64,000 bases of DNA. It comes from Candidatus Multivorans sp. Its GTDB lineage: Bacteria; Acidobacteriota; Thermoanaerobaculia; Multivoradales; Multivoraceae. Numbering within the stretch: position 1 is the first letter of the stretch; each line of letters begins with the position of its first letter. The notes below the pieces were generated by a model that had not been told where the DNA came from, ran no database searches, and saw nothing but the letters and a program-made list of their open reading frames with translations. The DNA lies in NCBI GenBank assembly GCA_965203495.1, contig CBDBDB010000016.1, forward strand, positions 72,719-136,718, written 5' to 3'. This document shows, one piece after another, positions 9,818 through 60,925 of this stretch. Position numbers and translations under genes: made by a program.

Positions 9818-9850
9818 GTCCAGGCCAGGAACGGCGCCATCGTCTCGTCG

Positions 9851-10740: not shown

Positions 10741-10803
10741 GTGGACGCCGCCAGCGGAAGCGCAAGCGCCGCTCGCGGCGGCTCTGAACGGCCCGGAGCA
10801 GCC

Positions 10804-11655: not shown

Positions 11656-11665
11656 GGGGCAGTCC

Positions 11666-43166: not shown

Positions 43167-43862
<696 letters not shown>

Positions 43863-43946
43863 CGGGCGGGCACGTTAGCACCGGACGCCGCCCGGGACGC
43901 TCCTGATACGGTCGGCGCTCGCAGCAGCGACAGGGGACTCGGAACG

Positions 43947-44843
43947 ATGATGACGGAATCGGCGCACAACCTCGGCCGGCTCGGCGTCTGGGCCGGCCTC
44001 GACGACCTCTCCGCGGCCCGGGCGGCCGACTTCGCGGCCCGCATCGAGGCCCAGGGCTACGGCGCGCTGTGGACGCCGGAGGCCATCGGCCGCGATCCGT
44101 TCGCCCTGATCGCCTGGCTCGGCGCCCGCACCGATCGCATCACCCACGCCACCGGCATCGCGAACATCTACGCCCGCGACGCGATGACGACGAAGGCGGT
44201 GCACAAGACGCTGTCCGAGATGCTGCCGGGCCGCTTCGTCCTCGGCCTCGGCGTCTCTCACCCGCACCTGGTCGCCAACCTGCGCGGGCACGAGTACCAG
44301 CCGCCGGTGCGGAAGATGCGCGAGTACCTGGAGGCCGTCGGCAAGGCGTTCTATCGAGGCCCCGAACCCGAGCGGGAGGCGCCGATCGTGATCGCCGCGC
44401 TGCGGCCGCTGATGCTGAAGCTCGCCGCGACGGCTGCCTCCGGCGCCCATCCCTACCTGGTGACGCCGGAGCACACCCGGAAGGCGCGCGAGATCATGGG
44501 CGAAGGCCCCCTTCTCTGCCCCGAGCAGAAGGTGATCCTGACCACGGACGCCGAGGCGGCCCGCGGGATCGGCCGCGCCAACCTTCAGGTCTACCTGCGG
44601 GCGCCGAACTACCAGAACAGCCTGCTCGAGCTGGGCTACGCCGAGGACGACTGGCGGGAGTTCCAAGCCAGCGACCGCCTGGTCGACGCCCTGATCGCGT
44701 GGGGAACGGAAGACCGGATCCGCGAACGCATCCAGGCCCACTGGGACGCCGGCGCCGATCACGTGTGCATCCAGGCGTTTCGTCCCGACGGCAAGCCGGG
44801 CGCCGACCTCGACGCCCTGGAGACGCTCGCCCCCGGCCGCTGA
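43947..44843 (+). CDS. luciferase-like monooxygenase (LLM) family oxidoreductase, probably F420- or flavin-dependent
   Basis: 298 aa with LLM-family collinearity (LGVWAG...RIEAQGYGALWTPE...GLGVSHPHLV...). ATG pair at 43947/43950 (MMTESAH...). Confidence 0.78.
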   Translation: MMTESAHNLGRLGVWAGLDDLSAARAADFAARIEAQGYGALWTPEAIGRDPFALIAWLGARTDRITHATGIANIYARDAMTTKAVHKTLSEMLPGRFVLGLGVSHPHLVANLRGHEYQPPVRKMREYLEAVGKAFYRGPEPEREAPIVIAALRPLMLKLAATAASGAHPYLVTPEHTRKAREIMGEGPLLCPEQKVILTTDAEAARGIGRANLQVYLRAPNYQNSLLELGYAEDDWREFQASDRLVDALIAWGTEDRIRERIQAHWDAGADHVCIQAFRPDGKPGADLDALETLAPGR

Positions 44844-44873
44844 CGCTCTCGACCAAACGAGGAGAAGGACCCC

Positions 44874-46064
44874 ATGAAGAACCGTCACTCCACGACCGCC
44901 ATCGCAACCGCGGTGCTTCTCGCGCTGACCGCACTCGCCTGCGGGCCGGCCGAGGAAGCGCCCGAACCGATCGACCTCGAGGCGCCCCTCGCCGATCTCG
45001 TCGAAGGGTGGAACACGATCGCCCCGGGCGGGAGCACGACCTGCTCCGACGGTTCGCCGTTCCGGTTCTTCGTCCGCAAGGCCGATCCGACCCGACTCGT
45101 CTTTTATCTCCAGGGCGGCGGCGGCTGCTGGAACGCCGAGACCTGCGACCCGCGGGGCCGACCGACCTACACCACGACCGCCATCGAGGAGCTGCGTTCG
45201 CCGAGCGGCACGGAGCCCGAGGAAGGCGCCGTCCACGGCATCGCGGCATTCAACCACCCGGAGAACCCGTTCGCCGACCACAGCTTCGTCTTCGTGCCCT
45301 ACTGCACCGGCGACGTTCACATCGGCGACCGCGACATGGTCTACGACGTGCCGGCGACGGAGGAGGAGCCGGCGCGCCAGGTGACGATCCACCACCGCGG
45401 CTACACCAACGGTCGGGCGGCTCTCGACTGGACGCACGAGCGCTTCAAGGGTCCCGAGACGGTCTTCGTCACCGGTTCGAGCGCCGGCTCGATTCCCGCG
45501 CCGGTCTATGCCCGCCACTTCGCGGAGCGCTATCCGGCCGCCCGCGTCACCGCCCTGGGCGACGGCGCCGGCGGCTACCGCAACCTGACCGACAGCCGGC
45601 CTCACGAGTCCTGGGGGACGCTGACCGCCCTCTCCGGCTTCGAGGACATGAACGGGATCGACAGCGACGACTTCTCGTTCGAGACCCTGTACATCCAGGC
45701 TGCCAAGGCCCACCCCGAGGTCGTGTTCACGCGGTACGACACCGCCGAGGACGACGTACAGCTCCAGTTCCTGCGGCTCGCCGGCGCGAACGTCGACGAC
45801 GGTCTGCAGCCGCTGCTGGACGCGAACGAGGCCGACATCGATGCCGCGCTCGAGGGGCAGGACAACTACCGGAGCTACGTCGCCCCGGGCGAGTTGCACA
45901 CGATCATGCTGCGGCCCGAGTTCTACACGGTCGAATCGGACGGCGTCGCGATCCGCGACTGGGTCGCGGCGCTCGCCGCCGGCGAGCCGGTCGACGACGT
46001 CCACTGCGGCGATTGCGCGGTTTCGCCGGAACCGGAAACCGCCGGCGAAGCGACCGGACCGTAG
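44874..46064 (+). CDS. pectin acetylesterase (PAE/Notum-like) family hydrolase, lipoprotein
   Basis: Lipobox LTALAC-G. LVFYLQGGGGCWNAETC matches the PAE-family oxyanion/GGGxC motif. 396 aa. Confidence 0.7.
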   Translation: MKNRHSTTAIATAVLLALTALACGPAEEAPEPIDLEAPLADLVEGWNTIAPGGSTTCSDGSPFRFFVRKADPTRLVFYLQGGGGCWNAETCDPRGRPTYTTTAIEELRSPSGTEPEEGAVHGIAAFNHPENPFADHSFVFVPYCTGDVHIGDRDMVYDVPATEEEPARQVTIHHRGYTNGRAALDWTHERFKGPETVFVTGSSAGSIPAPVYARHFAERYPAARVTALGDGAGGYRNLTDSRPHESWGTLTALSGFEDMNGIDSDDFSFETLYIQAAKAHPEVVFTRYDTAEDDVQLQFLRLAGANVDDGLQPLLDANEADIDAALEGQDNYRSYVAPGELHTIMLRPEFYTVESDGVAIRDWVAALAAGEPVDDVHCGDCAVSPEPETAGEATGP

Positions 46065-46143: not shown

Positions 46144-47277
46144 CTACTCGGGGAAGAGACTCCGGTCGAGACCCGGGATGATCTTCAGCGCGTTGCGGAA
46201 GTAGATCTTCTCGAGCGCCTCTTCCGACAGGCCGAGGCCGTACATCTTCCAGTGGGCGTGGCGCTTCCGGTAGTAGTCGAAGTACTCGTCCCGCGTCTCC
46301 AGGACGCGGAAGTAGACGTGGTAGCCGTCGATCGGATCCCAGGAGTCCTTGCCCATCAGGACGCGGTCCTGGTACGTCTCCAGAAAGGCGGCGGCGGTGA
46401 TCGGCTGCCGGCCGAGTTCGGCGAGCACCGCGCCGAGTTCCGTATAGACGTTCGGCAGTTCGTCGAGCAGCTTGCCGAGCCGCTCCAGGTCGTTGCCGAA
46501 CCAGCCCAGGTGGGCGTTGATGAAGGTCGTGTTCGGGTGATTGCGGAACAGGTTGTGCTGCTCGGACATCGTCTGCTCGAACGAGGCGAAGCGCGCGGGG
46601 TCGTCGCGGCGACGGTTCGGAAACTGCTTGAGTTCGAGCCAGCGCTCGTTCCGCTCGTCCCACGGGTCCCAGAACGGCGACGGTTCACCGACGTGGATCA
46701 GGACCGGGATGCCAAGCGCTCCCGCCTTCTCCCACACCGGAGCGATCCGCGGGTCGTCCGCCGCCACCCTCTCGCCGTCGCTGTCGGTCTGGAACATGCT
46801 GAGGTTCTTGTAGATCTTCAGGCCCTGCGCGCCGGCCTCGACGTCCGCTTCAAGCTGCGCCGCCGCCTTCTCGCCCCAGCCGGGCTGACCGATGCCCGCG
46901 AAGTCGACGTTCGCGTAGACGGCGAACCGGCCGGGGTAGCGGCCCCTGGTCGCCGCAATGTTCGCCTTGAGGCGGTCGCCCGAACCGCCGCTCAGGTTGA
47001 CGAAGACAGCCATGTTCATCCTGTCCATCTCCTGGACCATTTCGTCGATCCGGGCCGGGTCGCCGCCGCGCAGGTGACCGTGAGCGTCGACGAAGGGGAA
47101 CTTCGCACGCGTCACCGGTCCGCCCGGCACGTTGAGCGTCGAACGCGGCTCCCAGGCCTCCACGGTCATCTCCTGGGCGGCGGCCGGAAGAGGCGGCGCG
47201 AGCAGCAGGGCGGCCAGCAGAAACCGCCGCGGATCGCCGATGCAGGTCGAGGCGTTCGAGCGATGGCAAACCGGCAT
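46144..47277 (-). CDS. amidohydrolase-2 family (PF04909-like TIM-barrel metal-dependent hydrolase), secreted
   Basis: Signal peptide, then FPFVDAHGHL metal-binding start. ATG at 47277 with a GGGGGAAAGAGA SD. 377 aa. Confidence 0.75.
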   Translation of the reverse strand: MPVCHRSNASTCIGDPRRFLLAALLLAPPLPAAAQEMTVEAWEPRSTLNVPGGPVTRAKFPFVDAHGHLRGGDPARIDEMVQEMDRMNMAVFVNLSGGSGDRLKANIAATRGRYPGRFAVYANVDFAGIGQPGWGEKAAAQLEADVEAGAQGLKIYKNLSMFQTDSDGERVAADDPRIAPVWEKAGALGIPVLIHVGEPSPFWDPWDERNERWLELKQFPNRRRDDPARFASFEQTMSEQHNLFRNHPNTTFINAHLGWFGNDLERLGKLLDELPNVYTELGAVLAELGRQPITAAAFLETYQDRVLMGKDSWDPIDGYHVYFRVLETRDEYFDYYRKRHAHWKMYGLGLSEEALEKIYFRNALKIIPGLDRSLFPE

Positions 47278-47390
47278 GGTCTCTTTCCCCCGGGCTTCCT
47301 GGTTCTGGTCCAAGCGGTCGGAGTCTACGGCAGGCTCCTCCCGGAGTTCTCGCGGACGGCAGGCGCCGTGCCCGCGTATACTCGCGGGCG

Positions 47391-47669
47391 ATGTCCATCG
47401 TGCGCGCCGCCGAAGTCGTGGTGTTGCTGTTCAGCGTGTACATCGCCTGCGGGCTGGCCTTCGCCCCCTTCTTTGTCTGGCGCGGGATCGGCCGCATCGA
47501 TCCCGCCGCACGATCGGCCGGTCTCGGCTTCCGGCTCATCATCCTCCCCGGCGTGGCCGCACTCTGGCCCGTCCTCCTGCCGAGGTGGCTTGCCGGCCGA
47601 CACTCCCCCTCGGAGCGCAACGCTCATCGCGACGCGGCCGCCGGTCGACCGAGGCAGGCCTCCGAGTGA
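47391..47669 (+). CDS. small 2-TM membrane protein (first gene of a translationally coupled operon)
   Basis: 92 aa. MSIVRAAEVVVLLFSVYIACGLAFAPFFVW... hydrophobic. Stop overlaps the next start (GTGA). TATACT hexamer 8 nt upstream of the ATG. Confidence 0.5.
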   Translation: MSIVRAAEVVVLLFSVYIACGLAFAPFFVWRGIGRIDPAARSAGLGFRLIILPGVAALWPVLLPRWLAGRHSPSERNAHRDAAAGRPRQASE

Positions 47670-47869
47670 TCCGCGGCCTGCGGCGGCGCCACCGCCTGGT
47701 CTGGACGGCGCTGTTCCCCGTCCTCGCGGTCCTGCTCGCCGCCGCCGTCCTCCTTCGTCCCGAGCCGCCGATCGTGGACGCCCTTCCCGAGCCGCGCGAC
47801 GCGGCGGCGGACGCGGTCGAGACCCGCGGCCGGGACGACACCGAACCATCGCGGAACGAGGATCCGTGA
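47666..47869 (+). CDS. small single-TM protein
   Basis: 67 aa. GTG start overlapping the previous stop. LVWTALFPVLAVLLAAAVLL TM helix. Stop overlaps the next GTG start. Confidence 0.4.
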   Translation: MIRGLRRRHRLVWTALFPVLAVLLAAAVLLRPEPPIVDALPEPRDAAADAVETRGRDDTEPSRNEDP

Positions 47870-48936
47870 GCGCCGAGTACCAGGCGGTCCTCTGGAACCG
47901 CAACAAGAAGCTCTACGACCTGACGATCGCGGCCGGCATCGTCCTGTTCCTCGGTCTCTTCGTCGGCGTCGGCGTCGCGACGCGTCCGCGGGCGACGATC
48001 GAAACCCTCCTGATCCGCGGCTTCGGCGCCGGCGCCCTGCTGCTGCTGCACGTCGTGCTCGCCATCGGACCGCTCTGCCGCCTCGAACCGCGGTTCCTGC
48101 CCCTGCTCTACAACCGCCGTCACCTCGGCGTCTGCGTGTTCCTGCTGGCTCTCGCCCACGGCGGGTTCTCGATCGTCCAGTTCCACGGCTTCGGCGTCCT
48201 GAAACCGCTCGTCAGCGTGCTGGCCAGCAACGGGAACTACGACAGCCTGACCCAGTTCCCGTTCCAGGCGCTCGGGCTTTCGGCGCTCGCGATCCTGTTC
48301 CTGCTGGCGGCGACCTCGCACGACTTCTGGCTCGCCAACCTCACCGCGCCGGTCTGGAAGTCGCTCCACATGCTGGTCTACGTCGCCTACGGACTGATCC
48401 TCGCGCACGTCGCGCTGGGCAGCCTGCAGACCCAGGAGCGACCGCCGGCGCTCGCCGCTCTGCTGGGGATCGGACTCGTCGGCGTCGCTTCGCTGCACCT
48501 CGCGGCCGGTTGGCGCGAACGCGGCCGGGCGCCGTTCGCCGCGGCGAACGGCGCCGCGGTCGACGTCTGCGCCGTCTCCGCCATTCCTCTCGACCGGGCG
48601 CGAATCGTCCTCCTCGGCGGCGAGCGGGTGGCGGTGTTTCGCTATCGCGCGGACGACGGCGAACGGATCGCGGCTGTCTCCAACGTCTGCCAGCATCAGA
48701 ACGGCCCGCTGGGAGAGGGCCGGGTCATCGACGGCTGCATCACCTGCCCGTGGCATGGCTACCAGTACCGTCCCGAGGACGGCTGCTCGCCGGCGCCGTT
48801 CACCGAGAAGGTCCCGACCTTCAACGTGCGGGTAAAGGATGGCCGGGTGCTGGTCGATCCGAGGCCGAACGCGCCTGGAACGCGTGCCGAGCCGGCGCGG
48901 CTCGACGCCGCGGCCCGCGACGAGGACGCTTCGTGA
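47866..48936 (+). CDS. fusion of a ferric-reductase-like (MsrQ/YedZ-type heme b) transmembrane domain and a C-terminal Rieske [2Fe-2S] domain
   Basis: N-terminal 6-TM region with conserved intramembrane His (LLLLHVVLAIG..., LALAHGGFS..., SLHMLVYVAYGLILAHVAL). C-terminal CQHQNGPLGEG...CITCPWHGYQY Rieske CXH...CXXH boxes. GTG at 47866 overlaps the upstream stop. Confidence 0.75.
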   Translation: MSAEYQAVLWNRNKKLYDLTIAAGIVLFLGLFVGVGVATRPRATIETLLIRGFGAGALLLLHVVLAIGPLCRLEPRFLPLLYNRRHLGVCVFLLALAHGGFSIVQFHGFGVLKPLVSVLASNGNYDSLTQFPFQALGLSALAILFLLAATSHDFWLANLTAPVWKSLHMLVYVAYGLILAHVALGSLQTQERPPALAALLGIGLVGVASLHLAAGWRERGRAPFAAANGAAVDVCAVSAIPLDRARIVLLGGERVAVFRYRADDGERIAAVSNVCQHQNGPLGEGRVIDGCITCPWHGYQYRPEDGCSPAPFTEKVPTFNVRVKDGRVLVDPRPNAPGTRAEPARLDAAARDEDAS

Positions 48937-49775
48937 TCGGCGCCCGCCGCGACGAGTTCCACGTCGGCCACGTCGACGAGACGCCGCCGGACGTTGCTCG
49001 GTTCGCTCGTCGCATCGCCATCGGCTTCCTGCTGCTGGCCGCCGTTCTCGGGGCCGTCGCGGCGCTGCTGCTGGAGCGCTTCGACGAAGGCGTGTTCGAG
49101 TACGGCGTCGTGGGGGACCACGCAGGCGAACTGCTCCTCGACCCCCATCCCCGCCTGATCGCGGCGGACGGACCGGCCGCGGGCTATCTGCTGGTCGGGA
49201 CGGGAAAACACGGGCTGGACGTGAGCGGCGAATCCAGCCCGCCCTGGACGCCCTCGTCGTCCAGGAAGGCCGAGATCTCGGCCACGCTGATCCGGAACCC
49301 GGAGGCGGCCATGCTCGAAGTGCATTCCCTCGAGTTTCCCGAGGGGCCCGAAGGCAAGGCCGACGCCGAACCCGCCGCCGAGCCGGGCGTCCCCGCCGAC
49401 CGCGGACAGACCCTGCTGGGGGAGATCGTCGACACGAAGTGCTACCTGAGCGCCATGAAGCCGGGCCGCGGCAAACCCCACCGGGACTGCGCCTCGCTCT
49501 GCATCCGCGGAGGCGTTCCGGCCGCGTTGCTGGTGCGGACGGAGAACGGCGAACGACGCCTGGTCCATCTGCTGGACCCGCGGGGCCAGGCGTTGGGGCA
49601 CGAGGTTCTCGACTGGGTGGGCGAACCGGTCGAGGCGCGGGGAACCCTGAGGCGGCGTGACGGCCGCTTCTTCCTGCGGACGTTCGGCATCCGGCCGACA
49701 CGCGCCCCCGCGGCGGCCCCCTTCGTCCTGCCGTCCAGCCGGACGCACCCGTCCCCGACCGCAAGCAGCCGATGA
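48933..49775 (+). CDS. hypothetical single-TM membrane-anchored protein
   Basis: 280 aa. GTG overlapping the Rieske stop (GTGA). TM helix IAIGFLLLAAVLGAVAALLL then soluble domain (…KCYLSAMKPGRGKPHRDCASLCIRGG…). Stop overlaps the olsB ATG (ATGA). Confidence 0.5.
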   Translation: MIGARRDEFHVGHVDETPPDVARFARRIAIGFLLLAAVLGAVAALLLERFDEGVFEYGVVGDHAGELLLDPHPRLIAADGPAAGYLLVGTGKHGLDVSGESSPPWTPSSSRKAEISATLIRNPEAAMLEVHSLEFPEGPEGKADAEPAAEPGVPADRGQTLLGEIVDTKCYLSAMKPGRGKPHRDCASLCIRGGVPAALLVRTENGERRLVHLLDPRGQALGHEVLDWVGEPVEARGTLRRRDGRFFLRTFGIRPTRAPAAAPFVLPSSRTHPSPTASSR

Positions 49776-50635
49776 CCGAGCCAGTCCGCGACAACGCCCC
49801 GGCGACCGGCCTCGGCGGCGGACCCATGCCCGGCCCCGAACACCTGCCCGACGGACAGATCGAAGCCGGCGCCTACCGACTGCGCTTCGCGCGCACGGCC
49901 GAGGACATCGACCGGCTGCTGGCCCTGCGCTTCGAGGTCTTCAACCTGGAACTGGGAGAAGGTCTCGACGAGTCCTGGGACACCGGCCGTGACACGGACG
50001 GTTTCGACGCAAGTTGCCACCACATGCTGGTCGAGCGGACGGACGGCACGATGATCGGCACCTACCGGATGCAGACGGCCGCCATGGCGGCCCGCGGCAA
50101 GGGCTTCTACTCGGCCACCGAGTACGACCTGGACGCCCTGCCCCGCGGCGTGCTCGACCGTTCGGTCGAGATCGGCCGCGCCTGCATCGAACGCCGCCAC
50201 CGGAAGCGGACGGTCCTGTTCCTGCTCTGGCGGGGCCTGGCCCGCTACATGGTCCACAATCGGCTCCGCTACCTGTTCGGTTGCTGCTCCCTGACCAGCC
50301 AGGACCAGGCCGCGGGCATCCGGCTCTACCGGCAGCTCGTCGCGGGCGGCAAGGTCAGGCCGGACCTCGACGTGCCGGTACTCGAGCACGCCCGCTGCGA
50401 GGCGCCGACCGAGATCGTCGAGAGCGGGCCGCGGACCGAGATGCCGCCCCTGTTCGCAACCTACCTGCGCTACGGCGCCCTCGTCTGCAGCCGGCCGGCG
50501 ATCGACCGCGACTTCAGAACGATCGACTACCTGGTGCTGATGGACACGGACACGCTCAGCCGGCGCATGCGGCTGATCTTCGGACTCGACCCGACGCCGG
50601 CAACCGAATCGGCGACGCGCGACGCCAGCGCCTGA
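49772..50635 (+). CDS. olsB: OlsB-like GNAT-fold N-acyltransferase (ornithine/amino-acid lipid N-acyltransferase family)
   Basis: 287 aa. YRLRFARTAEDIDRLLALRFEVFNLELGEG and downstream ...GTYRMQT...EIGRACIERRHRKR... follow the OlsB/GlsB (hemolysin-like acyltransferase) pattern. Followed by a PlsC-type acyltransferase. Confidence 0.78.
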   Translation: MTEPVRDNAPATGLGGGPMPGPEHLPDGQIEAGAYRLRFARTAEDIDRLLALRFEVFNLELGEGLDESWDTGRDTDGFDASCHHMLVERTDGTMIGTYRMQTAAMAARGKGFYSATEYDLDALPRGVLDRSVEIGRACIERRHRKRTVLFLLWRGLARYMVHNRLRYLFGCCSLTSQDQAAGIRLYRQLVAGGKVRPDLDVPVLEHARCEAPTEIVESGPRTEMPPLFATYLRYGALVCSRPAIDRDFRTIDYLVLMDTDTLSRRMRLIFGLDPTPATESATRDASA

Positions 50636-50639
50636 GGGA

Positions 50640-51455
50640 ATGCGCTTCCCTCGCGTCTGTCGGCTGGCCTGGCGGGGCCCGGCGCTCCTCCTGGCCACCC
50701 TGGCCGCATGGCTGCCGCTGCTGGTCCTGAAGCCGCTCCTCGCGCGCCGCCGCTACCCTACCTGGCGCAGGGTCCGCTCCGGCATCATGCGCCGCTGGGG
50801 CCAGGCGTGCCTGGCCGCGCTCGGCTGCCGGGTCACGGTCCGGGGAGCGCCGCCCCGGCCGCCCAGCCTGCTGGTCTCGAACCACGTCTCCTACGTCGAC
50901 ATCCTGGTGCTTGCCGCGCACTCGCCCGCCCGTTTCGTCTCCAAGTCCGAGGTCGGGGGGTGGCCCCTGGCCGGCTGGGTGTGCCGCACGGTCGACATCC
51001 TCTTCGTCGACCGCGGCCGGCGGCGCGACGTGACCCGGGTCGGCGATCAGATCGCCGAGGCCCTAGAGGCGGGCGATCCGGTCATCCTCTTCGCTGAAGG
51101 CACGTCGACGCCCGGCGATGCGGTGGCCACGCTCAAGCCCTCGTTGCTGGCGCCGGCCGCCGTCCAGGAACTCCCGGTGCACTGGGCGGTCCTGCGCTAC
51201 GAGACGCCGGACGACGAGGATCCCGCCTTCCTGAGCGTCGCCTGGTGGGGCGACATGCCGCTGACGCCGCACGCGCCCGAACTGCTCACGCTGCGCCGGA
51301 TCGACGCCGAGCTCGAGTTCGGGGCGGAGCCGCTTCATGACGCCGACCGCAAGGAACTCGCGCGTCGACTGCGACGACGCATGACGGCGGCGTTCCGGCC
51401 CATGGTTTCGAGCGAGGAAGCGGCCGCTTCGACCGGCGACCGGCGGTTTCCATGA
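50640..51455 (+). CDS. olsA: lyso-aminolipid O-acyltransferase, PlsC (1-acyl-sn-glycerol-3-phosphate acyltransferase) family, OlsA-like
   Basis: HX4D acyltransferase motif (SNHVSYVDILVL) and the FAEGTS block. N-terminal TM anchor. Immediately downstream of olsB. Confidence 0.75.
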   Translation: MRFPRVCRLAWRGPALLLATLAAWLPLLVLKPLLARRRYPTWRRVRSGIMRRWGQACLAALGCRVTVRGAPPRPPSLLVSNHVSYVDILVLAAHSPARFVSKSEVGGWPLAGWVCRTVDILFVDRGRRRDVTRVGDQIAEALEAGDPVILFAEGTSTPGDAVATLKPSLLAPAAVQELPVHWAVLRYETPDDEDPAFLSVAWWGDMPLTPHAPELLTLRRIDAELEFGAEPLHDADRKELARRLRRRMTAAFRPMVSSEEAAASTGDRRFP

Positions 51456-54076
51456 CGGTTTCCGGGAGGCGCCGGCACTGGCCTCGGGTCGCCCTCGGCG
51501 TCTACTGCGCGCTGCTGCTTGCTTCGACGGTCGTCCGGCTGGCCAGGGACGAACGCCAGCCGCCGCCGGAAGATCGCAGGACGATGGAGATCCCCACGCC
51601 GGACGGCGAAGGGACGTTGCTCATCGCCTGGAAGGAAACGTCTTCCCCGAACGAGGAGGCGCTGCCGCTCGTGCTGCTGCACGGATCGCCCGGCAGCGCC
51701 GGGAACTTCGACGGCCTGACGTCGCGGTCGACCCGGCGGCGGACCATCGCGCCGGACCTTCCCGGCTTCGGCGCCTCCGATCGCCGAGTGGCCGACTACT
51801 CCGCCCGCGGCCACGCGAGTTCCACGCTGAGGCTGCTCGATCGCCTGAACGTCGAGCGGTTTCACGTTCTCGGTTTCAGCATGGGCGGCGCGGTTGCGCT
51901 GCATCTCGCCGAACAGGCGCCCCGCCGGGTCGCCTCGGTCGTCCTGACGTCGGCGATCGGCGTTCAGGAGCTCGAGCTCCTGGGCGACTACCGGATGAAC
52001 CACGGGCTTCACCGTCTCCAGCTCGGCCTGTTGCGGGCGATCCGCCTTCTGGTCCCCCACTTCGGCGTGTTCGACAGCGCCGCCGCCTGGTCCTACGCCC
52101 GCAACTTCCACGACACGGACCAGCGGCCGCTGCGCGGCATCCTCGAGTCCCTCGACGCGCCGGTCTTCATTGTCCACGGCACGCGGGATCCCCTCGCGCC
52201 GGCCGCCGCGGCGCTGGAGCACCACCGCATCGTGCCGCAAAGCGAGTTGTGGATGCGTCCTGACAGCCACTTCTTCCTGTTCCGAGGCGGCGAAGAGCTT
52301 GCCGCCCGGATCGAGGACTTCCTGAGCCGCGTCGAGGCAGGCGAGGCAGCGACTCGCGCCGATGCCGAACCGGACCGGCTGCGCCGCGCCGCCCTGCCGT
52401 TCGACGACCGGAACCTCCCGCCGTTCGCCGGGCCCGCCCTGCTGATCGTCTTCCTGCTCCTCGTCTTCGCCGCGTACGTCAGCGAGGATCTGGCCGGCGT
52501 TGCCGCCGGCCTGCTCGCGGCCCAGGGCCGGCTCGACTTCACCGTTGCCGTCGCCGCCTGCTACGTCGGCAACCTGAGCAGCGACCTCGTCATTGCCTGG
52601 CTGGCGCGCGTTCTCGGCCGGCCGGCTCTCGGACTGCCGCCCTTCAAGTGGTGGGTCAGCGACGCTTCGATCGAAGAGGCTTCCGCCTGGCTGCGCCGGC
52701 GCGCCCTGGCGGTCGTGCTGGCCAGTCGGTTCCTGCCCGGAACGCGCCTGCCGATCTGTCTGGCCGCCGGCATCCTGCGCACGAGTCTGCCCCGGCTCTG
52801 CTTCTGTTTCGCGGTCGCCGGGGCAATCTGGACCCCGGCTTTCGTCGGCGTGAACGCCCTCCTGGGACGCGAAGCCGTCGCGCGCCTTGGCGGCCGGCTG
52901 CCGGGAGGGATCTTCGGCGCCGCGCTGGTCCTGGCGCTCGTCATCTTCACCGTGCGGAGCGTGGTCCTGCCTCTGCTCACGTGGCGGGGCCGCCGCCTCT
53001 GGCGCGGCCGCCTGCTGCGCATCCGGCGATGGGAGTTCTGGCCGACGTGGGCGTTCTATCCGCCGCTCGCGCTCCACATTCTCTGGCAGGGCCTGTTGCG
53101 GGGCAACCTGACCGCGTTCACCGCCATCAACCCCTCCATGCCGCTAGGCGGTCTGGTCGGTGAGTCGAAGAGCCACATCCTCGACGGACTGGCCGGCATC
53201 GGCGAGGCGCTGCCGGCCTGGAGGCGGCTCGGGACCGGACGCCCGGAGGAACGCGTCGCGGCTCTGCGCCGCTTCCTGAAGGACGAGAACCTCGACTACC
53301 CCGTCGTGCTCAAGCCGGACACCGGCGAACGCGGCCGCGGCGTCGCCGTAGCGCGCACCGAAGCCGACGCGGTAGCGTTCTTCGAGAAGACCCCGGGACC
53401 GGCGCTGGCGCAGGAGTTCGTCGACGGCGAGGAGTACGGCGTGTTCTGGGCCCGGCGCCCGGGCCGACGCAGCGGGCACGTCTTCTCGATCACGCACAAG
53501 GTGCGGCCCACCGTGACCGGCGACGGAACCAGCACGTTGGAGCGGTTGATCCTGAACGACCCGCGCGCGGTCGCCATCGCCCACGTGTACCGGCGGGAGC
53601 ATCCCGAGGCGGCGACGCACATCCCCGAGGTCGGCGAGAAAGTCGAGCTGACCCAGGTCGGCGCCCACTCGCGGGGGACGATCTTCCTGGACGCCAACGA
53701 CCTGCACACGTCGGACCTGGAGCGGGCGATAAACGCGATCTGCACCGCCTGCGTCGGCTTCGACTTCGGCCGCTTCGACCTGCGCGTCCCGAGCGCCGAG
53801 GCGCTGCGGCGCGGCGAGGGCATCCGCGTGCTGGAAGTGAACGGAGTGACGTCGGAAGCCACCCACATGTACGACCCGCGCTACGGTTTCCTCGCCGCCC
53901 ACGCGATCCTGCGACGGCAGTGGCAGCTGGCGTTCGACCTGGCGGAGGAACGCATCCGCGAAGGTGTTCGACCCGCCACGTTGAGCCGGATTCTCCACGC
54001 CGCGCGGGTTGAACGACGAGCCCGCCGCGGCGCGGCGCAAGCGCCCGCCCGCCGGGCGCGGCGCCGAACACGGTGA
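51452..54076 (+). CDS. three-domain fusion: N-terminal alpha/beta hydrolase, central DedA/VTT-family membrane domain, C-terminal ATP-grasp ligase-like domain
   Basis: aa 60-300: LLHGSPGSAGNF...GFSMGGAVALHLA...HGTRDPLAP (alpha/beta hydrolase). aa 330-480: SEDLAGVAAG...RFLPGTRLPICLAAGI (DedA/VTT signature). aa 560-840: YPVVLKPDTGERGRGVAVARTEADAVAFFE...LAQEFVDGEEYGVFW...VLEVNGV (ATP-grasp-like). ATG overlaps the olsA stop (ATGA). Confidence 0.75.
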   Translation: MTVSGRRRHWPRVALGVYCALLLASTVVRLARDERQPPPEDRRTMEIPTPDGEGTLLIAWKETSSPNEEALPLVLLHGSPGSAGNFDGLTSRSTRRRTIAPDLPGFGASDRRVADYSARGHASSTLRLLDRLNVERFHVLGFSMGGAVALHLAEQAPRRVASVVLTSAIGVQELELLGDYRMNHGLHRLQLGLLRAIRLLVPHFGVFDSAAAWSYARNFHDTDQRPLRGILESLDAPVFIVHGTRDPLAPAAAALEHHRIVPQSELWMRPDSHFFLFRGGEELAARIEDFLSRVEAGEAATRADAEPDRLRRAALPFDDRNLPPFAGPALLIVFLLLVFAAYVSEDLAGVAAGLLAAQGRLDFTVAVAACYVGNLSSDLVIAWLARVLGRPALGLPPFKWWVSDASIEEASAWLRRRALAVVLASRFLPGTRLPICLAAGILRTSLPRLCFCFAVAGAIWTPAFVGVNALLGREAVARLGGRLPGGIFGAALVLALVIFTVRSVVLPLLTWRGRRLWRGRLLRIRRWEFWPTWAFYPPLALHILWQGLLRGNLTAFTAINPSMPLGGLVGESKSHILDGLAGIGEALPAWRRLGTGRPEERVAALRRFLKDENLDYPVVLKPDTGERGRGVAVARTEADAVAFFEKTPGPALAQEFVDGEEYGVFWARRPGRRSGHVFSITHKVRPTVTGDGTSTLERLILNDPRAVAIAHVYRREHPEAATHIPEVGEKVELTQVGAHSRGTIFLDANDLHTSDLERAINAICTACVGFDFGRFDLRVPSAEALRRGEGIRVLEVNGVTSEATHMYDPRYGFLAAHAILRRQWQLAFDLAEERIREGVRPATLSRILHAARVERRARRGAAQAPARRARRRTR

Positions 54077-54086
54077 GACGCGCGGA

Positions 54087-54557
54087 CTACCCGGCCTTCG
54101 CGGGCGCCTTCTTCTTCGCCGTCCGACGACGCGGCTTCGGCTTCTCCAGCGCATCGAGCCGCGCCTCGATCGCCCCCAGCCGTTCGATCACGGCCTCCAG
54201 GTCCGCCTTGCCAGGGACGCCGAGCTTCTCGAGCCGCCGCTCCAGGTGCTCGTCGATTCCCGTCCGCGCCTTGGCCCGCGTCTGTTCGACCCCCTTTTCG
54301 GCGGCGGCGCGCACCTGCTGAACCTTCTCCTCGGCCTTGTCCCGCCAGCCGCTCAGGGACTCCCGACTCTGGCTCTCGACCTTCTCGCCGCGCGCGACCA
54401 GCCGGTCGAAGACCCTGGCGCCCACATCCGCCGCCTCGCCCGCCGCCCCGACGCCGGCGAGCGCCGCCTTGTGAACCTTCTCGACGACGGACTCGACCGC
54501 CGTCCGCGGCTTCGAGCCGCTGTCCCTCCCGTCCGCCGCGGATGCTGCTGCCGTCAT
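54087..54557 (-). CDS. phasin / PHA-granule-associated protein with Lys/Ala-rich histone-like tail
   Basis: 156 aa, helical and low complexity, rich in A/E/K/R. C-terminal PKPRRRTAKKKAPAKAG. ATG at 54557 with AGGGGAGA SD. Resembles PhaF/phasin-family proteins. Confidence 0.65.
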   Translation of the reverse strand: MTAAASAADGRDSGSKPRTAVESVVEKVHKAALAGVGAAGEAADVGARVFDRLVARGEKVESQSRESLSGWRDKAEEKVQQVRAAAEKGVEQTRAKARTGIDEHLERRLEKLGVPGKADLEAVIERLGAIEARLDALEKPKPRRRTAKKKAPAKAG

Positions 54558-54750
54558 CTGTTCTCCCCTGTACGTTGCGTCTTCCAGTGGTCTGACCGCG
54601 ACCCGGTCAGCGCCCCGAAACTCGTCTCCCGCTCTGTGTTCCGGCCCATCCTGTCCGTCCCCGGTAGCTCGGGACAGGAACGCGGCGCCTTGACCGGAGT
54701 GCCAAGCCGGACCTTCCGATTGGCATTGAGCGCAGAGTAACATCGGCGCC

Positions 54751-55659
54751 ATGAGAATCCATACGAAAAAACCGAGATCGATGTTGGCCTTCGTCCTGCC
54801 GACGACACTGATCGCGCTCACCGCCTTCGGCGGCGTCCACGCGCAAGACGAAGCCGCGACGAAGTCCTTCACGGCCAGCGACGGCGTCGAGATCCACTAC
54901 CTGGTCGAAGGCCGCGGCGACCCGGTCGTGCTGCTTCACGGCATCACCGGCACGGCCGTCTCGAACTGGGGCGCGACGGGCATCATCGGCCAACTGGCCG
55001 AGGAGTTCCAGGTCATCGCCGTCGACCAACGCGGCCACGGCAAGAGCGGCAAGCCGCACGACCCGGCGAGCTACGGCGAGCGCATGGCGCTGGACGTCGT
55101 CGACCTGCTCGATCACCTGAAGCTGCGGCAGGCCCACGTCGTCGGGTACTCGATGGGCGGCTTCATCACGATGAAGCTCGTCGCGCTGGCCCCGGACCGG
55201 CTGATGTCGGCCGTGGTCGGCGGCGCCGGCTGGCCCAGCCGCGAACTCCGGGATGACGCGATGTTCGACGCGCTGGCCGCTTCCCTGGAGGAAGGCAATG
55301 GCGCCGGCCCCTTGATCGAAGCCCTCTGGTCCGGCGACGACCCGCCGGCGCCAGAGCAGGTTCAGGCGATCGGCCAGATGATGGTCGCCTCGAACGATCA
55401 AGCGGCCCTCGCCGCCGTCGTCCGCGGCATGCCCTCCCTCGATCTGGGCGCGGACGCTCTCCGGTCGAACAAGGTGCCGACCCTCAACATCATCGGCGGC
55501 GCCGACCCCCTGAAGCCGAGCGCCGAGGCCCTCGTCGGCCTGATGGAGGGGCACCGCCTCCACGTCATCGAAGGCGCGGACCACATGACCGCTCTCCGGT
55601 CCCCCGAGTTCACCGCCGCGATCCGCGACTTCCTCATCGAACTCTGCAACTGCGCCTGA
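54751..55659 (+). CDS. secreted alpha/beta hydrolase
   Basis: Signal peptide (MLAFVLPTTLIALTAFGGVHAQ), HGITGT...DQRGHGKS, GYSMGG nucleophile elbow, C-terminal GADH catalytic His region. Confidence 0.8.
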   Translation: MRIHTKKPRSMLAFVLPTTLIALTAFGGVHAQDEAATKSFTASDGVEIHYLVEGRGDPVVLLHGITGTAVSNWGATGIIGQLAEEFQVIAVDQRGHGKSGKPHDPASYGERMALDVVDLLDHLKLRQAHVVGYSMGGFITMKLVALAPDRLMSAVVGGAGWPSRELRDDAMFDALAASLEEGNGAGPLIEALWSGDDPPAPEQVQAIGQMMVASNDQAALAAVVRGMPSLDLGADALRSNKVPTLNIIGGADPLKPSAEALVGLMEGHRLHVIEGADHMTALRSPEFTAAIRDFLIELCNCA

Positions 55660-55957
55660 CAGCCGTCGGGCCGCGCCGTCGCACGGGAGGCGGGACACAC
55701 TGGCTGCGCAGGCGTCCCCGCCGGCATCCGGCGCGAAACGCCGGGCTCCGGAATCCGTGTCGCGCCGGCAGCGTCGGCACACCTGTACCTTTCCGGGATG
55801 GGATTCGGTCATCGATCTCGTACCGTTCGCCGTAGTCGCCGGGGCTGCGGTAGCTGTGGGAAACCGGTCCGCCGGTATTCCAAGGACCGGCGGGAAACGG
55901 CTTGCCGTTTTCCCGGTGCGGCGGTGTCTGTTCGATGCAACCGAGGGCGTGGAGCCG

Positions 55958-57094
55958 CTACGCCGACAACAGCGTCTCGACCAGCGTGGTCCAGTAGCGC
56001 ATGCCCAAGGGCAGGATGTCGTCGTTGAAGTCGTAGCGGGGGGTGTGGAGGCCGGCGCTGTCGCCGTTGCCCAGGAACATGAAGGCGCCGGGACGCTCCT
56101 GGAGCATGTAGGCGAAGTCCTCGGAACCCATGACGGGCGAGAGGTCCGTGGCGACGTCCTCGCCGACCTCCCGGGCGGCGTTCGCCGCCTTCTTCGTCTG
56201 CTCGGCGTGGTTCACGGTGGCCGGGTAATAGCGGCGATACTGGAACTCGAAGCCGGCGCCGTGGGCCGCGCAGATGCCGCCGCCGATCTGGCGCATCCGC
56301 CGTTCAACGAGCTGCTGCACTTCGGGCAGAAACGCCCGGACGCAGCCGCCGTGAACGACGCGGCTCGGGATGACGTTGTCCGCGCGACCGCCGTGAACGC
56401 GTGTCACGGTGATCACCGCGCTGTTCAGCGGGTCCACGTTGCGTGCAACGATCGTCTGCAGGGCGAGAACGATCTCGGCCGCGACCGGAATCGGGTCCAC
56501 CGTACCGTGGGGGAACGCCGCGTGGCCGCCGGCGCTGGTGACGGCAAACTCGAACACGTCGATCGCGGCCATCAGCGGCCCGGCGCGCAGGCCGAAGGCG
56601 CCGACTTCCATTCCCGGGTAGTTGTGGACGCCGTAGACCTCCTCGGCGGGGAACCGCTCGAACAGGCCCTCCTCGATCATCACGCGGGCGCCGCCATCCT
56701 TCTCTTCGGCGGGCTGGAAGACGAAGTAGACCGTGCCGTCGAAGGACCGGTTCCGGCTCAGATGGCTCGCCGCGCCGAGCAGCATCGCCGTGTGGCCGTC
56801 GTGACCGCAGGCGTGCATCCTGCCGGGGTTCCGGGAGCGGTGCTCGAAGTCGTTCTCCTCCTCGATCGGCAGCGCGTCCATGTCCGCGCGGAGCGCGATG
56901 CCGCGATCCGACGAGCCGGACTTCAACACGCCGACAACGCCGGTGCCAGCAAGACCGCGGTGGACCTCGATGTCGCCGAACGACTCGAGCAGCGCCGCCA
57001 CCTTCCGGCTGGTTTCCACTTCCTCGAACGCGAGCTCGGGGTGTCGGTGGAAGTCCCGCCTCCAGGACCTCATCTGTTCGTGCAGTGGATCCAT
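55958..57094 (-). CDS. M20D family amidohydrolase (hippurate hydrolase/aminoacylase-like)
   Basis: 378 aa starting MDPLHEQMRSWRRDFHRHPELAFEE (typical M20D start). Metal ligands in ...ADMDALP...HACGHDGH... and the C-terminal GSEDFAYM block. Confidence 0.85.
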   Translation of the reverse strand: MDPLHEQMRSWRRDFHRHPELAFEEVETSRKVAALLESFGDIEVHRGLAGTGVVGVLKSGSSDRGIALRADMDALPIEEENDFEHRSRNPGRMHACGHDGHTAMLLGAASHLSRNRSFDGTVYFVFQPAEEKDGGARVMIEEGLFERFPAEEVYGVHNYPGMEVGAFGLRAGPLMAAIDVFEFAVTSAGGHAAFPHGTVDPIPVAAEIVLALQTIVARNVDPLNSAVITVTRVHGGRADNVIPSRVVHGGCVRAFLPEVQQLVERRMRQIGGGICAAHGAGFEFQYRRYYPATVNHAEQTKKAANAAREVGEDVATDLSPVMGSEDFAYMLQERPGAFMFLGNGDSAGLHTPRYDFNDDILPLGMRYWTTLVETLLSA

Positions 57095-57316: not shown

Positions 57317-58912
57317 TCAGGCCCGCCGCTTCTTCTTGCTCACGCCGAGCGTCTCCCTCACCCTGACGTCGACTTTCTGGTCGATCCGCGACGCGGCGAG
57401 CCGAACGAGGAGATCGGAGGGTTCCACCCAGGTCGTGACCGGCGGCTCGCCATCGAACTCGATCCGCATCTTCCCCCGCTCGATCGTCATCTCGTACCGC
57501 CCCCTCTCCAGGCTGATCCGGGAGCGAATGCAGGGCCACTTCAACTGGCGGGCCAGTTCGAGCGCCGCGTCCTGCTCGCGCTTTCCCCAAGGCTCGGCCT
57601 GGAACAGTTCGTACAAGGGGAGGACGCGCTCCGGCGGCTTGCCGATGTCGAAGCCCGAGGCATCCAGCCGATGCGCCAGAGCGGACATTCGGTGGGTCAC
57701 GGCTTTCCGCAGCTCCGGCCCTCCGCGCAGGTCGAGCGGCAGCTTCAGCCAACCGTCGCGCGCCCCGAACAGGATGGCGGCCGCCAGCCGGTCGTCCTCC
57801 TTGAGTACAGAATGATCCTCGATCAGGTCGAGCAGGTCCGAACTCCGCTCGCGCAGACCCTTGCAGGCCTGTGCGTTGATAACGAGGATACCGCCCCGGT
57901 CGAAGCGGACTTCCGGCCGGTGCTGGCGATGGAACGTCTCGATCTCCGGTCGGCCGTTGTCCAGCGAGACAGTCGCGCGAACGCGCTTCAGCTCCTGAAG
58001 GTACTCCTCCCTCACCTTGTTGTTCGGCGCGATCACGCCGACCAGGCGGCGGGGATCCTGATCCCAGTGCCGCAGGACGTTCCCGGCGATTCGGGGCATC
58101 GCCGCTTCGTTCACCAGGTAGAGCCTGGGCACGTAGGCCGTGCCCGCCTCGGGCGGCAGGTCGGGTGGCGGAGACGCCGGATCGCCCGTGTAGAACGCTC
58201 GCGCCAGCCGAGCGATCCCATGCCGGTTGCGGTGGTTCCGCTTCAGTTCGACGACTTTGCCGCATAGACGATCCTCCAACTCTCGACGGCTCGAATTCTC
58301 GTCCTTGATCTGCTGGTTCTGATCGGCGGCCACGAAGATGTTGGCGAACCCGACGTTGTTCAGGAAGTCGTAGAAGCCGGGCGGCATGTCCTGGCCTTCG
58401 TCGATCACGAGGATCGGGAAGTCGCGCGTTCCATTCTCCGGGAGCGGCAACTCCTCGATCGTCCGCCTCACGGCTTGCCAGTCGAAGGGTCGCCAGTTCG
58501 ACCCGCTCTTCGGATCGCGTTTCGGCGTGTCTCTTCCGACCGCCTTCTTGAACTCGCTCCCGAACCAGGACATCCACGTCCTGGCCTCGAGTTCGCCATC
58601 AAACATTGCCTCGGACGCACGGAGCAGGAGGTGGTTCCAGACGAGGAAGACGTAGTCCTCGCCGTTTCGAGCGTGGCGTCGCGCTCGCAGCAGACAGACC
58701 ACCGTCTTGCCCGTGCCGGGTCCGCCAACGATCAGATACCGCCCCTTGCTCGGCAACGCCGGACCTCCGCCCGCTCCTGCACCGCCACATCCGCCACCCG
58801 ATGATGCACCTCCGCCAGCCGACGCTGCGCACGGCAGCGCCAACACCCGCTCCTGCTCCTTCGTCAGGTCTTCGATTCCCGGCAGCTCGTACCGACGCTC
58901 TCTACCCGCCAC
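57317..58912 (-). CDS. UvrD/Rep-like SF1 helicase-family P-loop NTPase (divergent, short)
   Basis: LTKEQERVLALP...GRYLIVGGPGTGKT (motif Ia/I), ILVIDEGQDM (motif II), KRNHRN (compare motif IV NYRS), ACKGLRE (compare motif V). GTG start at 58912 with perfect SD GGAGGAG 7 nt upstream. The N-terminal 94 aa of the track ORF are rejected. Confidence 0.65.
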   Translation of the reverse strand: MAGRERRYELPGIEDLTKEQERVLALPCAASAGGGASSGGGCGGAGAGGGPALPSKGRYLIVGGPGTGKTVVCLLRARRHARNGEDYVFLVWNHLLLRASEAMFDGELEARTWMSWFGSEFKKAVGRDTPKRDPKSGSNWRPFDWQAVRRTIEELPLPENGTRDFPILVIDEGQDMPPGFYDFLNNVGFANIFVAADQNQQIKDENSSRRELEDRLCGKVVELKRNHRNRHGIARLARAFYTGDPASPPPDLPPEAGTAYVPRLYLVNEAAMPRIAGNVLRHWDQDPRRLVGVIAPNNKVREEYLQELKRVRATVSLDNGRPEIETFHRQHRPEVRFDRGGILVINAQACKGLRERSSDLLDLIEDHSVLKEDDRLAAAILFGARDGWLKLPLDLRGGPELRKAVTHRMSALAHRLDASGFDIGKPPERVLPLYELFQAEPWGKREQDAALELARQLKWPCIRSRISLERGRYEMTIERGKMRIEFDGEPPVTTWVEPSDLLVRLAASRIDQKVDVRVRETLGVSKKKRRA

Positions 58913-60918: not shown

Positions 60919-60925
60919 GACAGGT

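Follow-up and report, generated by a model that had tools for sequence, protein, structure and literature searches.

In a stretch of 64,000 nucleotides from Candidatus Multivorans sp. (contig CBDBDB010000016.1; the whole stretch is referred to as the window), seven genes, here called g1 to g7, form a chain on the plus strand at 47391-54076. They belong to a conserved aminolipid-associated system for which no earlier description was found, and are a strong candidate for a new route of membrane-lipid modification. Aminolipids, of which ornithine lipids are an example, belong to the major membrane lipids that lack phosphorus. We give an even chance to the view that the operon combines two membrane modules repeatedly found next to each other in several phyla: module B (g5 to g7) would make and process an acyloxyacyl aminolipid, which g7 modifies, flips and trims, and module A (g1 to g4) would serve as an electron conduit. 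The gene structure, the domain identities, the intact catalytic residues, the conserved synteny and a pattern of gene fusion and fission were observed directly. The genes are as follows.

47391-47669, plus strand: g1, 92 amino acids (aa); two predicted transmembrane (TM) helices; start of module A.
47666-47869, plus strand: g2, 67 aa; basic N-terminus, one TM helix, acidic tail.
47866-48936, plus strand: g3, 356 aa; heme-b membrane domain followed by a Rieske domain in one protein.
48933-49775, plus strand: g4, 280 aa; N-terminal TM anchor and two OB-like beta-barrels.
49772-50635, plus strand: g5, 287 aa; OlsB-like N-acyltransferase (GNAT, Acetyltransf_5).
50640-51455, plus strand: g6, 271 aa; OlsA-like O-acyltransferase of the PlsC family with an N-terminal TM helix.
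51452-54076, plus strand: g7, 874 aa; three-domain membrane protein.

The open reading frames (ORFs) and their junctions were read directly from the sequence. From g1 to g7 the junctions are GTGA, GTGA, GTGA, ATGA (where the ATG of g5 overlaps the stop codon of g4), a 4-nucleotide gap (50636-50639) and ATGA, exactly as given in the first-pass annotation of this DNA, which had described a seven-gene translationally coupled layout. The window has a guanine plus cytosine (GC) content of ~70%, and six-frame ORF lists are full of spurious ORFs. Genes were called from GC content by codon position together with direct reading of the junctions. The codon-position GC of g1 to g7 is that of real genes, with values of 0.85-0.91 at the third (GC3) and 0.47-0.57 at the second position (GC2); GC3 is 0.85 for g1, 0.90 for g2 and 0.88 for the g4 frame (48933-49775). 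An ORF at 48839-49660, considered as an alternative g4, was rejected for the low GC3 in its frame. The start sites of the operon genes match those of homologues at distant loci. On both sides the operon is bounded by genes on the opposite strand, encoding an Amidohydro_2 protein (46144-47313, minus strand) and a phasin (54087-54872, minus strand).

Relatives of g7 were searched for in one genome per GTDB species and are encoded by at least 492 species, belonging to the Acidobacteriota (Thermoanaerobaculia, Blastocatellia and Vicinamibacteria-type), the Gemmatimonadota and the Planctomycetota. Synteny was analyzed by tblastn at the best 80 of these at least 492 loci; 51 of the 80, counted at species level, have 4 kb or more of sequence on each side. 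An OlsB-like gene was present beside the fusion at 49 of the 51 well-flanked loci and an OlsA-like gene at 48 of 51. Within the clade of 22 close relatives (L001-L022) synteny carries no information, since even the flanks are kept there, and the linkage was therefore also counted without this clade: OlsB-like genes were found at 30 of 32 and OlsA-like genes at 29 of 32 loci. The same counts speak against the concern, raised in the first-pass annotation, that the fusion might be widespread without olsB. Gene order varies. In the Planctomycetota loci L053 and L057, as in L072 and L079, olsB follows the fusion downstream; in L076 and L077 it is encoded on the other strand; and in the Terriglobia-type L081 and L082 it is divergent. 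The association of the fusion with OlsB is thus strong and is kept through rearrangement across Acidobacteriota, Gemmatimonadota and Planctomycetota. Module B was also found in two named strains with complete or near-complete genome records, Saltatorellus ferox Poly30 (L057, NZ_CP036434.1, within 3393834-3416329, a complete genome; order olsA, DinB, TANGO2, fusion, olsB) and Acidobacteria bacterium Mor1 (L060, CP011806.1; order olsB, olsA, DinB, fusion).

The protein encoded by g7 can be aligned over its full length with 18 homologues (44-80% identity), and many residues are invariant. Its domains are as follows.

51479-52375, plus strand: TM anchor (residues 10-28) and PlaF-like alpha/beta-hydrolase (residues ~54-308).
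52424-52978, plus strand: DedA/VTT membrane domain (residues ~325-509; PF09335).
53018-54001, plus strand: juxtamembrane hydrophobic helix (RWEFWP..FYPP) and ATP-grasp ligase (residues ~523-850).

The N-terminus of g7 is basic and is followed by the TM helix at residues 10-28, as in PlaF. The hydrolase domain matched Abhydrolase_1 with 95 bits, and a profile search against the PDB returned 6i8w (PlaF) over residues 54-308 with an E value of 1.6e-23. Other best PDB relatives are polyhydroxybutyrate depolymerases, lipases and esterases, PlaF being the only membrane-lipid enzyme among them. The catalytic triad S143 (within GFSMGG), D246 and H273 is invariant in the 18 homologues. The central domain matched PF09335 with 41.5 bits (cut-off 33.9) over residues 353-467. 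Here, E345, D346, R426, P429, G430 and R432 are invariant in the same homologues, as is D378. The R426/R432 pair has the spacing of 6 seen in YqjA, and E345, D346 and D378 are candidates for the acidic residues of that protein.

The C-terminal domain was confirmed as an ATP-grasp fold by a PDB profile search and a fold search. Searched with a profile built from the last 370 residues of g7, the PDB yielded cyanophycin synthetase (E 3e-8), followed by GshAB, a RimK-like protein and Ddl. An AlphaFold2 model of the domain, with a predicted local distance difference test (pLDDT) score of 85, matched GshF, CphA1, CphA2, Ddl and LysX with a Foldseek probability of 1.00. The nucleotide- and Mg-binding residues K621, E661, R774, D776, E795 and N797 are invariant in the 18 homologues; K621 (the Lys of the 'KPD' strand), R774, D776, and E795 and N797 of the E-x-N motif align with the CphA1 motifs. 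The domain content proposed earlier (ferric-reductase-type domain with Rieske, OlsB-like GNAT, PlsC, and hydrolase-DedA-ATP-grasp) was reproduced with Pfam and NCBIfam, the ATP-grasp by way of the PDB profile and fold searches. The hydrophobic helix RWEFWP..FYPP is kept in stand-alone ATP-grasp enzymes of the family, which suggests that the ligase is held at the membrane. In the topology map of YqjA, the N-terminus is cytoplasmic, residue 20 periplasmic and the C-terminal end cytoplasmic, and the membrane-embedded acidic and Arg pairs are E39/D51 and R130/R136. PlaF (PDB 6I8W), a phospholipase A1 acting on glycerophospholipids, is anchored in the cytoplasmic membrane by an N-terminal TM helix and exposes its catalytic domain to the periplasm. 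Based on the YqjA map and the parallel to PlaF, the hydrolase of g7 is predicted to be periplasmic and the ATP-grasp cytoplasmic.

The two acyltransferase genes were compared with family and equivalog models. g5 matched PF13444 with 98.6 bits (cut-off 22.4) over residues 52-154, and its alignment to the OlsB model spans positions 6-253 of 256. g6 matched PF01553 with 67 bits (cut-off 23) and contains the HX4D motif as NHVSYVD (residues 81-87) as well as a FAEGTS motif. The OlsB and OlsA calls of the first-pass annotation hold at this family level, but the equivalog cut-offs of NCBIfam were missed: g5 reached 126.6 and 125.8 bits with the OlsB models NF052554 and NF052555 (cut-offs 350 and 320), and g6 134.7 and 130.3 bits with the OlsA models NF052553 and NF052552 (cut-off 300). 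Both proteins reach roughly 35-45% of what the equivalog models require.

Further insight into g7 came from loci where its parts are encoded by different genes. At the Terriglobia-type loci L081 and L082 the order is olsA and olsB (both leftward), then YHS, DoxX, DinB, DedA-ATP-grasp, TANGO2, small ORFs, the ferric-reductase-type-Rieske gene and a g4-like gene. The DedA-ATP-grasp protein of L081 has 546 aa, lacks the hydrolase and is 35% identical to residues 324-847 of g7. In L084 and L085 all parts are separate, and the genes encode a short-chain dehydrogenase/reductase (SDR), g1, a 152-aa TM protein, g3 (61% identical), g4, OlsB, YHS, DoxX, DinB, DedA (203 aa), TANGO2 and ATP-grasp (378 aa), the TANGO2 gene thus lying between the separate DedA and ATP-grasp genes. 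The ATP-grasp family, which comprises 1639 clusters (50% identity, E<=1e-30), therefore occurs in three architectures (separate, DedA-ATP-grasp and hydrolase-DedA-ATP-grasp) around its DedA partner and within the same neighbourhood. Such fusion and fission is classic evidence that DedA and the ATP-grasp act together. DedA plus ATP-grasp is thus the conserved core and the hydrolase an add-on, missing in Terriglobia.

The neighbourhood includes further recurrent genes. At most of the distant loci, genes for a DinB_2 protein (~170 aa) and a TANGO2/NRDE protein (~245 aa) lie between olsA and the fusion (L024, 8740-9953; L057, 8600-9900; L081, 5700-6221 and 7879-8625). The TANGO2/NRDE protein begins with Met-Cys, like Ntn-type hydrolases. 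A YHS gene and a gene for a DoxX-like membrane protein open the Terriglobia-type module (L081, 4853-5703; L084, 5138-6069); in L084 the N-terminus of the YHS protein looks like a signal peptide. L078 and the Gemmatimonadota loci L073 and L074 have a DoxX-like gene as well, located 3' of the fusion.

Module A consists of the genes g1 to g4, of which g1, g2 and g4 have no match in Pfam or NCBIfam. Within g3 and g4 the following features were identified.

47920-48504, plus strand: ferric-reductase-type heme-b domain of g3 with six TM helices (residues ~19-213; PF01794).
48559-48855, plus strand: C-terminal ferredoxin-type Rieske [2Fe-2S] domain of g3 (residues 232-330; PF00355).
49419-49520, plus strand: invariant motif GEIVDxKC...H..CA..C..GG of g4 (residues 163-196), Cys3His with the spacing C-x12-H-x2-C-x3-C.

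g1 has two hydrophobic segments in hydropathy analysis and shares 48% identity with its positional counterpart in L084, a contig of 57% GC. g2 was detected by tblastn in 18 of the 22 close relatives; at distant loci its slot is taken by a different small TM protein, such as that of 152 aa in L084. g3 matched PF01794 with 47 bits (cut-off 28) and PF00355 with 56.7 bits, above gathering, contains the motif CQH...CPWH, and is 61-65% identical between distant clusters. Its best NCBIfam matches, NirD, AndAb and MsrQ, are all below cut-off (MsrQ equivalog 41 bits versus 130), so that by its scores g3 is best classed as a member of the PF01794 family but not as MsrQ. The first-pass annotation had read the Rieske/heme-b protein as an oxygenase-type unit. 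This had to be given up: behind the membrane domain only PF00355 and PF13806 were found, and no catalytic mononuclear-iron domain (e.g. PF00848). The Rieske domain has ~100 aa, the protein ends 26 residues past it, and the best matches (AndAb, NirD, HcaC) are ferredoxin-type. g3 rather looks like an electron carrier, resembling a trans-membrane electron conduit, with the Rieske domain placed in the cytoplasm by the positive-inside rule. The predicted model of g4 (pLDDT 82) shows two OB-like barrels. Its Cys3His motif resembles the TRASH/YHS pattern, C-x(19-22)-C-x3-C.

A metagenome scan with g4 yielded at least 567 relatives. On all ten metagenome contigs with at least 6 kb of flanks, g1, g3 and g4 occur together. 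The trio, often accompanied by an SDR gene, was also found on metagenome contigs of 38-41% GC (L099, L108, L125, L127 and L138), which suggests that module A is present in lineages unlike the high-GC ones. In L127, the sole one of these five contigs with at least 6 kb on both sides, no aminolipid genes were found nearby, and the neighbours of the contigs L094 and L127, which carry module A only, gave no recurrent partner. In L094, genes for Amino_oxidase/flavin adenine dinucleotide proteins lie on either side of g1-g3-g4 (6072-7517 and 10760-12265). The trio g1/g3/g4 is hence an autonomous module that is recurrently but not always located beside module B. At least four arrangements bring the two modules together: in Thermoanaerobaculia, in the Gemmatimonadota loci L052 and L068, on opposite strands in L058, and in the Terriglobia-type loci L081, L082, L084 and L085. 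They also adjoin on the metagenome contigs L095, L098, L101, L102, L104, L134, L153, L159, L162 and L166. Most Blastocatellia and Planctomycetota loci carry module B without module A.

These data are consistent with the following pathway, for which we infer the topology, the substrate, the direction of ligation and the link between module A and the lipid. The soluble OlsB-like g5 would N-acylate an amino acid, and the membrane-anchored OlsA-like g6 would add a second acyl chain. The cytoplasmic ATP-grasp domain, tethered to the membrane, would then form an amide at the head group using ATP. The likeliest route for this step would be activation of the free carboxylate of the lipid to an acyl phosphate and its reaction with an amino acid or amine, as in CphA, GshF and RimK. 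The DedA domain would transfer the lipid to the outer leaflet, where the periplasmic PlaF-like serine hydrolase may remove an acyl chain or part of the head group in turnover or remodelling. In module A, electrons would pass from the cytoplasmic Rieske [2Fe-2S] cluster to heme b and on to g4, the periplasmic TM-anchored tandem OB-fold Cys3His protein. Module A would have its target on this face of the membrane, either the lipid itself or whatever the lipid binds. A more specific proposal, which we put forward tentatively and regard as possible rather than probable, is that the g7 family would be the first ATP-grasp acting on head groups of membrane lipids. The enzyme, coupled to its own DedA flippase and a periplasmic trimming hydrolase, would link an amino acid or amine to the free carboxylate (or the amine) of an OlsBA aminolipid and so give dipeptide- or taurine-type lipids. 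With the full system, this head group would have redox or metal activity, serviced from the cytoplasm by trans-membrane electron transfer.

Several observations weigh against the proposed pathway. Homologues without OlsB nearby exist (L050, L054, L080 and the stand-alone ATP-grasp of L086); around the latter, P0338, no OlsB-like gene lies within 8 kb, and a 255-aa neighbour has no Pfam match. L084 and L085 have OlsB but no OlsA. The OlsBA product is a presumed substrate of the ATP-grasp, and no lipid product is on record from any organism with the cluster. With g5 and g6 far under the OlsB and OlsA equivalog cut-offs, ornithine is not established as the head group, and their scores indicate that it may be another one. 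No Pfam ATP-grasp model reached gathering with g7 (ATP-grasp_3 18.4-20.3 bits versus 23.2, RimK 16.8 versus 21), although a weak signal lies at residues 612-800. Ahead of the central ATP-grasp domain, the model contains helices and a short segment instead of a clear Rossmann-like domain, and the Foldseek template-modelling score is only 0.35-0.51; in this model the ATP-grasp thus seems to lack a recognizable N-terminal substrate domain. The placement of the hydrolase outside and the ATP-grasp inside is a prediction from hydropathy and analogy. By analogy with OlsI, an alpha/beta-hydrolase that is an O-acyltransferase, the name hydrolase may itself denote the wrong activity. Among the ten well-flanked contigs with module A, ATP-grasp, DinB and TANGO2 are within reach on five and the trio stands alone on the other five, so module A may have a role independent of the lipid. 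Finally, a tblastn search for DinB, TANGO2, YHS, DoxX and SDR gave nothing credible in the 64-kb window. The window operon may be a reduced version of the larger system, or the DinB, TANGO2, DoxX and YHS genes may lie elsewhere in the genome. A DinB match with E 0.002 at 57958-58158 was rejected, being in a non-coding frame. The earlier suggestion of an operon for a further-modified aminolipid is supported in part by the conserved OlsB-linked gene set, but the redox trio proved separable from this set, and ornithine could not be fixed as its head group.

Other explanations of the same gene cluster were considered. The OlsBA enzymes could make an ordinary ornithine-type or other aminolipid whose head group g7 leaves untouched, g7 being a general membrane-homeostasis protein (DedA scramblase plus lipase). 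Its ATP-grasp would have a different substrate, such as a soluble metabolite, a phospholipid or an intermediate linked to polyprenyl phosphate. Neighbourhood would then reflect co-regulation in membrane remodelling, e.g. when phosphate is limiting. This fits the best named match of the g7 DedA domain, the undecaprenyl phosphate transporter UptA (46 bits, far below cut-off), the glycerophospholipid substrates of PlaF, and the homologues without OlsB nearby in L050, L080 (beside an SDR gene) and L086. We nevertheless hold it to be unlikely, as an OlsB linkage of 49/51 is far tighter than usual for co-regulation and was kept across phyla after rearrangement, and phospholipid or polyprenyl genes do not recur in the neighbourhoods examined. 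The L050 locus (6466-9859) contains a Blastocatellia g7 homologue without olsB and olsA directly 3' of GT2, phytoene-desaturase-like and Caroten_synth genes; together with L094 it may represent a recurrent neighbourhood with carotenoid-type genes. We scarcely credit the reading that g1-g4 and g5-g7 are unrelated operons which abut in this lineage by chance and have nothing to do with each other functionally. Module A does occur alone on five of the ten metagenome contigs with sufficient flanks, among others on contigs of 38-41% GC, and in Blastocatellia and Planctomycetota module A is missing beside module B at most loci. The stop codon of g4 and the start codon of g5 overlap (ATGA) in the window, however, and the modules are neighbours in the four or more arrangements and the many metagenome contigs listed above.

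Two further alternatives concern the product and the hydrolase domain. The full system (OlsB, ATP-grasp, DinB, TANGO2, DoxX, YHS, the ferric-reductase-type-Rieske protein and the Cys3His protein) could make a redox-active or metal-binding lipid or lipopeptide, such as a lipid-anchored thiol (through a glutathione-style ATP-grasp and a DinB thiol transferase) or an amphiphilic metallophore. The heme-b/Rieske conduit would keep this product reduced at the periplasmic face, and the operon of the window would be a cut-down form of the system. The closest solved relatives of the ATP-grasp indeed include the glutathione-forming GshAB and GshF, g3 belongs to the ferric-reductase family, and g4 has its invariant Cys3His motif. 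DinB_2, DoxX, YHS and TANGO2 genes recur nearby, with the signal-peptide-like N-terminus of the L084 YHS protein. A bacterial TANGO2 homologue was reported as a heme-trafficking protein (PMC10470608), and a pair of cytochrome b561 and a periplasmic lipocalin detoxifies lipid peroxyl radicals (PMC9113575). The idea is built wholly on family-level analogies, however; DinB, TANGO2, DoxX and YHS are absent from the window and from many loci, and module A is missing at most Blastocatellia and Planctomycetota loci, which makes it quite unlikely in our view. Similarly, the alpha/beta-hydrolase domain of g7 could be an acyltransferase that, by analogy with OlsI, adds or exchanges an acyl chain on a lyso-aminolipid. 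OlsI is the alpha/beta-hydrolase O-acyltransferase of the third ornithine-lipid pathway (PMC12971839), and in L030, L072, L076, L077 and L079 the three-domain fusion and OlsB are present while OlsA was undetected. Against this, the predicted periplasmic site offers no obvious activated acyl donor, OlsA coexists with the hydrolase domain in 48 of 51 loci, and L084 and L085 lack both, so that no complementary pattern emerges; with the phospholipase PlaF as the sole membrane-lipid enzyme among the best solved relatives, an acyltransferase appears decidedly improbable.

Around the operon, a scan of 46900-54600 for promoters and terminators gave no site above shuffle expectation, and a sigma-70 consensus scan found no full promoter upstream of g1. 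A TATACT hexamer is located 14 nucleotides 5' of the g1 ATG (window 47371-47390), where no Shine-Dalgarno-like sequence is visible. The operon mRNA may be leaderless or have a very short leader at g1. The 3' flank (54087-57094) carries the phasin gene (minus strand), a separate alpha/beta-hydrolase gene (plus strand, 54751-55659) and an M20 peptidase gene (minus strand). These three genes are outside the system and conserved only in the close 'Multivorans' clade. The 5' flank (43167-46064) encodes a cytochrome c assembly protein (minus strand), a luciferase-like monooxygenase (plus strand) and a pectinacetylesterase-family protein (plus strand), and is syntenic in close relatives only. A 649-aa ORF at 58981-60930 (minus strand) contains an MrfA Zn-binding domain (PF09369) and has no relation to the operon.

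The linkage of OlsB/OlsA-type genes to a membrane-tethered ATP-grasp offers a plausible catalyst class for ATP-dependent head-group amidation, and the DedA domain of g7 is a candidate for a dedicated aminolipid flippase. If the more specific proposal for the g7 family is true, abundant soil phyla (Acidobacteriota, Gemmatimonadota and some Planctomycetota) would make an unseen class of membrane lipids, and the enzyme class behind ATP-dependent head-group amidation, a reaction known since the 1970s, would be identified. The presence of the genes in the complete genome of Saltatorellus ferox Poly30 makes the hypothesis directly testable. The g1/g3/g4 redox trio is itself an uncharacterized, widely distributed membrane module.

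Aminolipid synthesis was reviewed in March 2026 (PMC12971839). The review describes three pathways to acyloxyacyl aminolipids (OlsBA, OlsF and OlsHI) and five modifications, namely three hydroxylations, N-methylation and taurine transfer; the words 'flippase' and 'DedA' do not occur in it. A search of the full-text literature found no description of OlsB or aminolipids combined with ATP-grasp, DedA or TANGO2, one review merely citing a general ATP-grasp paper. g5 and g6 are similar to OlsB/OlsA (GlsB/GlsA) in forming an adjacent pair of Acetyltransf_5 and PlsC type with full-length model alignments; they differ in scoring below the equivalog level and in their location within a larger conserved neighbourhood that PMC12971839 does not mention. 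g3 and g4 resemble MsrPQ and LcoA-BcnA (PMC9113575), where a ferric-reductase-type heme-b domain likewise has a small periplasm-facing partner, whereas g3 has its own cytoplasmic Rieske domain and g4, a TM-anchored tandem OB-fold protein with Cys3His, is without known relative. The N-terminal part of g7 is comparable to PlaF of Pseudomonas aeruginosa in its TM helix with basic flanks followed by an alpha/beta-hydrolase, but PlaF is a stand-alone phospholipase A1, while the g7 domain sits between a TM helix and a DedA core. With the CphA G domain, GshF/GshAB, RimK, Ddl and LysX, g7 shares the fold, the conserved Lys and the E-x-N Mg site, and a 'GDG.ST' insertion aligns with CphA1. Identity to these ligases is only 14-23%, however, and g7 has a conserved hydrophobic helix where the canonical N-terminal domain would be.

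In its overall design, g7 is reminiscent of MprF/LpiA with AcvB/PA0919, which, in the available text of PMC13534887 and PMC13197417, combine a cytoplasmic head-group enzyme fused to a translocator with a periplasmic alpha/beta-type hydrolase. According to the available text of PMC13197417, an operon of lpiA (lysyl-phosphatidylglycerol synthase/flippase) and acvB (periplasmic hydrolase) sets the levels of lysyl-phosphatidylglycerol. The likeness is one of functional logic only, since the synthase and flippase domains of MprF were not found in g7 with Pfam and NCBIfam. Unlike these proteins, g7 has an ATP-grasp in place of a tRNA-dependent transferase and DedA in place of the MprF membrane domain, unites all parts in one polypeptide and probably has an aminolipid, not phosphatidylglycerol, as its substrate. 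Roney and Rudner (2023; PMC10193950) listed DedA domains fused to an MprF synthase, a CDP-alcohol phosphatidyltransferase and a phospholipase D, and read these fusions as DedA flipping the product of its partner. g7 also joins DedA to an enzyme, but hydrolase-DedA-ATP-grasp is not among the fusions listed there. The ATP-grasp of g7 scores below the Pfam thresholds, so a survey of domain architectures based on Pfam was probably blind to it. As a natural case of DedA fusion and fission, the g7 family backs the idea that DedA flips the product of the fused or adjacent enzyme. The first-pass annotation had pointed to lipid modifications without an assigned enzyme, and PMC12971839 names such a case: an ATP-dependent transfer of taurine to the carboxyl of ornithine lipid, yielding cerilipin in Gluconobacter cerinus, is known biochemically, with the gene unassigned. 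While cerilipin is known from Gluconobacter cerinus and the g7 cluster from Acidobacteriota, Gemmatimonadota and Planctomycetota, ATP-requiring amide formation at a lipid head group is a reaction of the ATP-grasp type.

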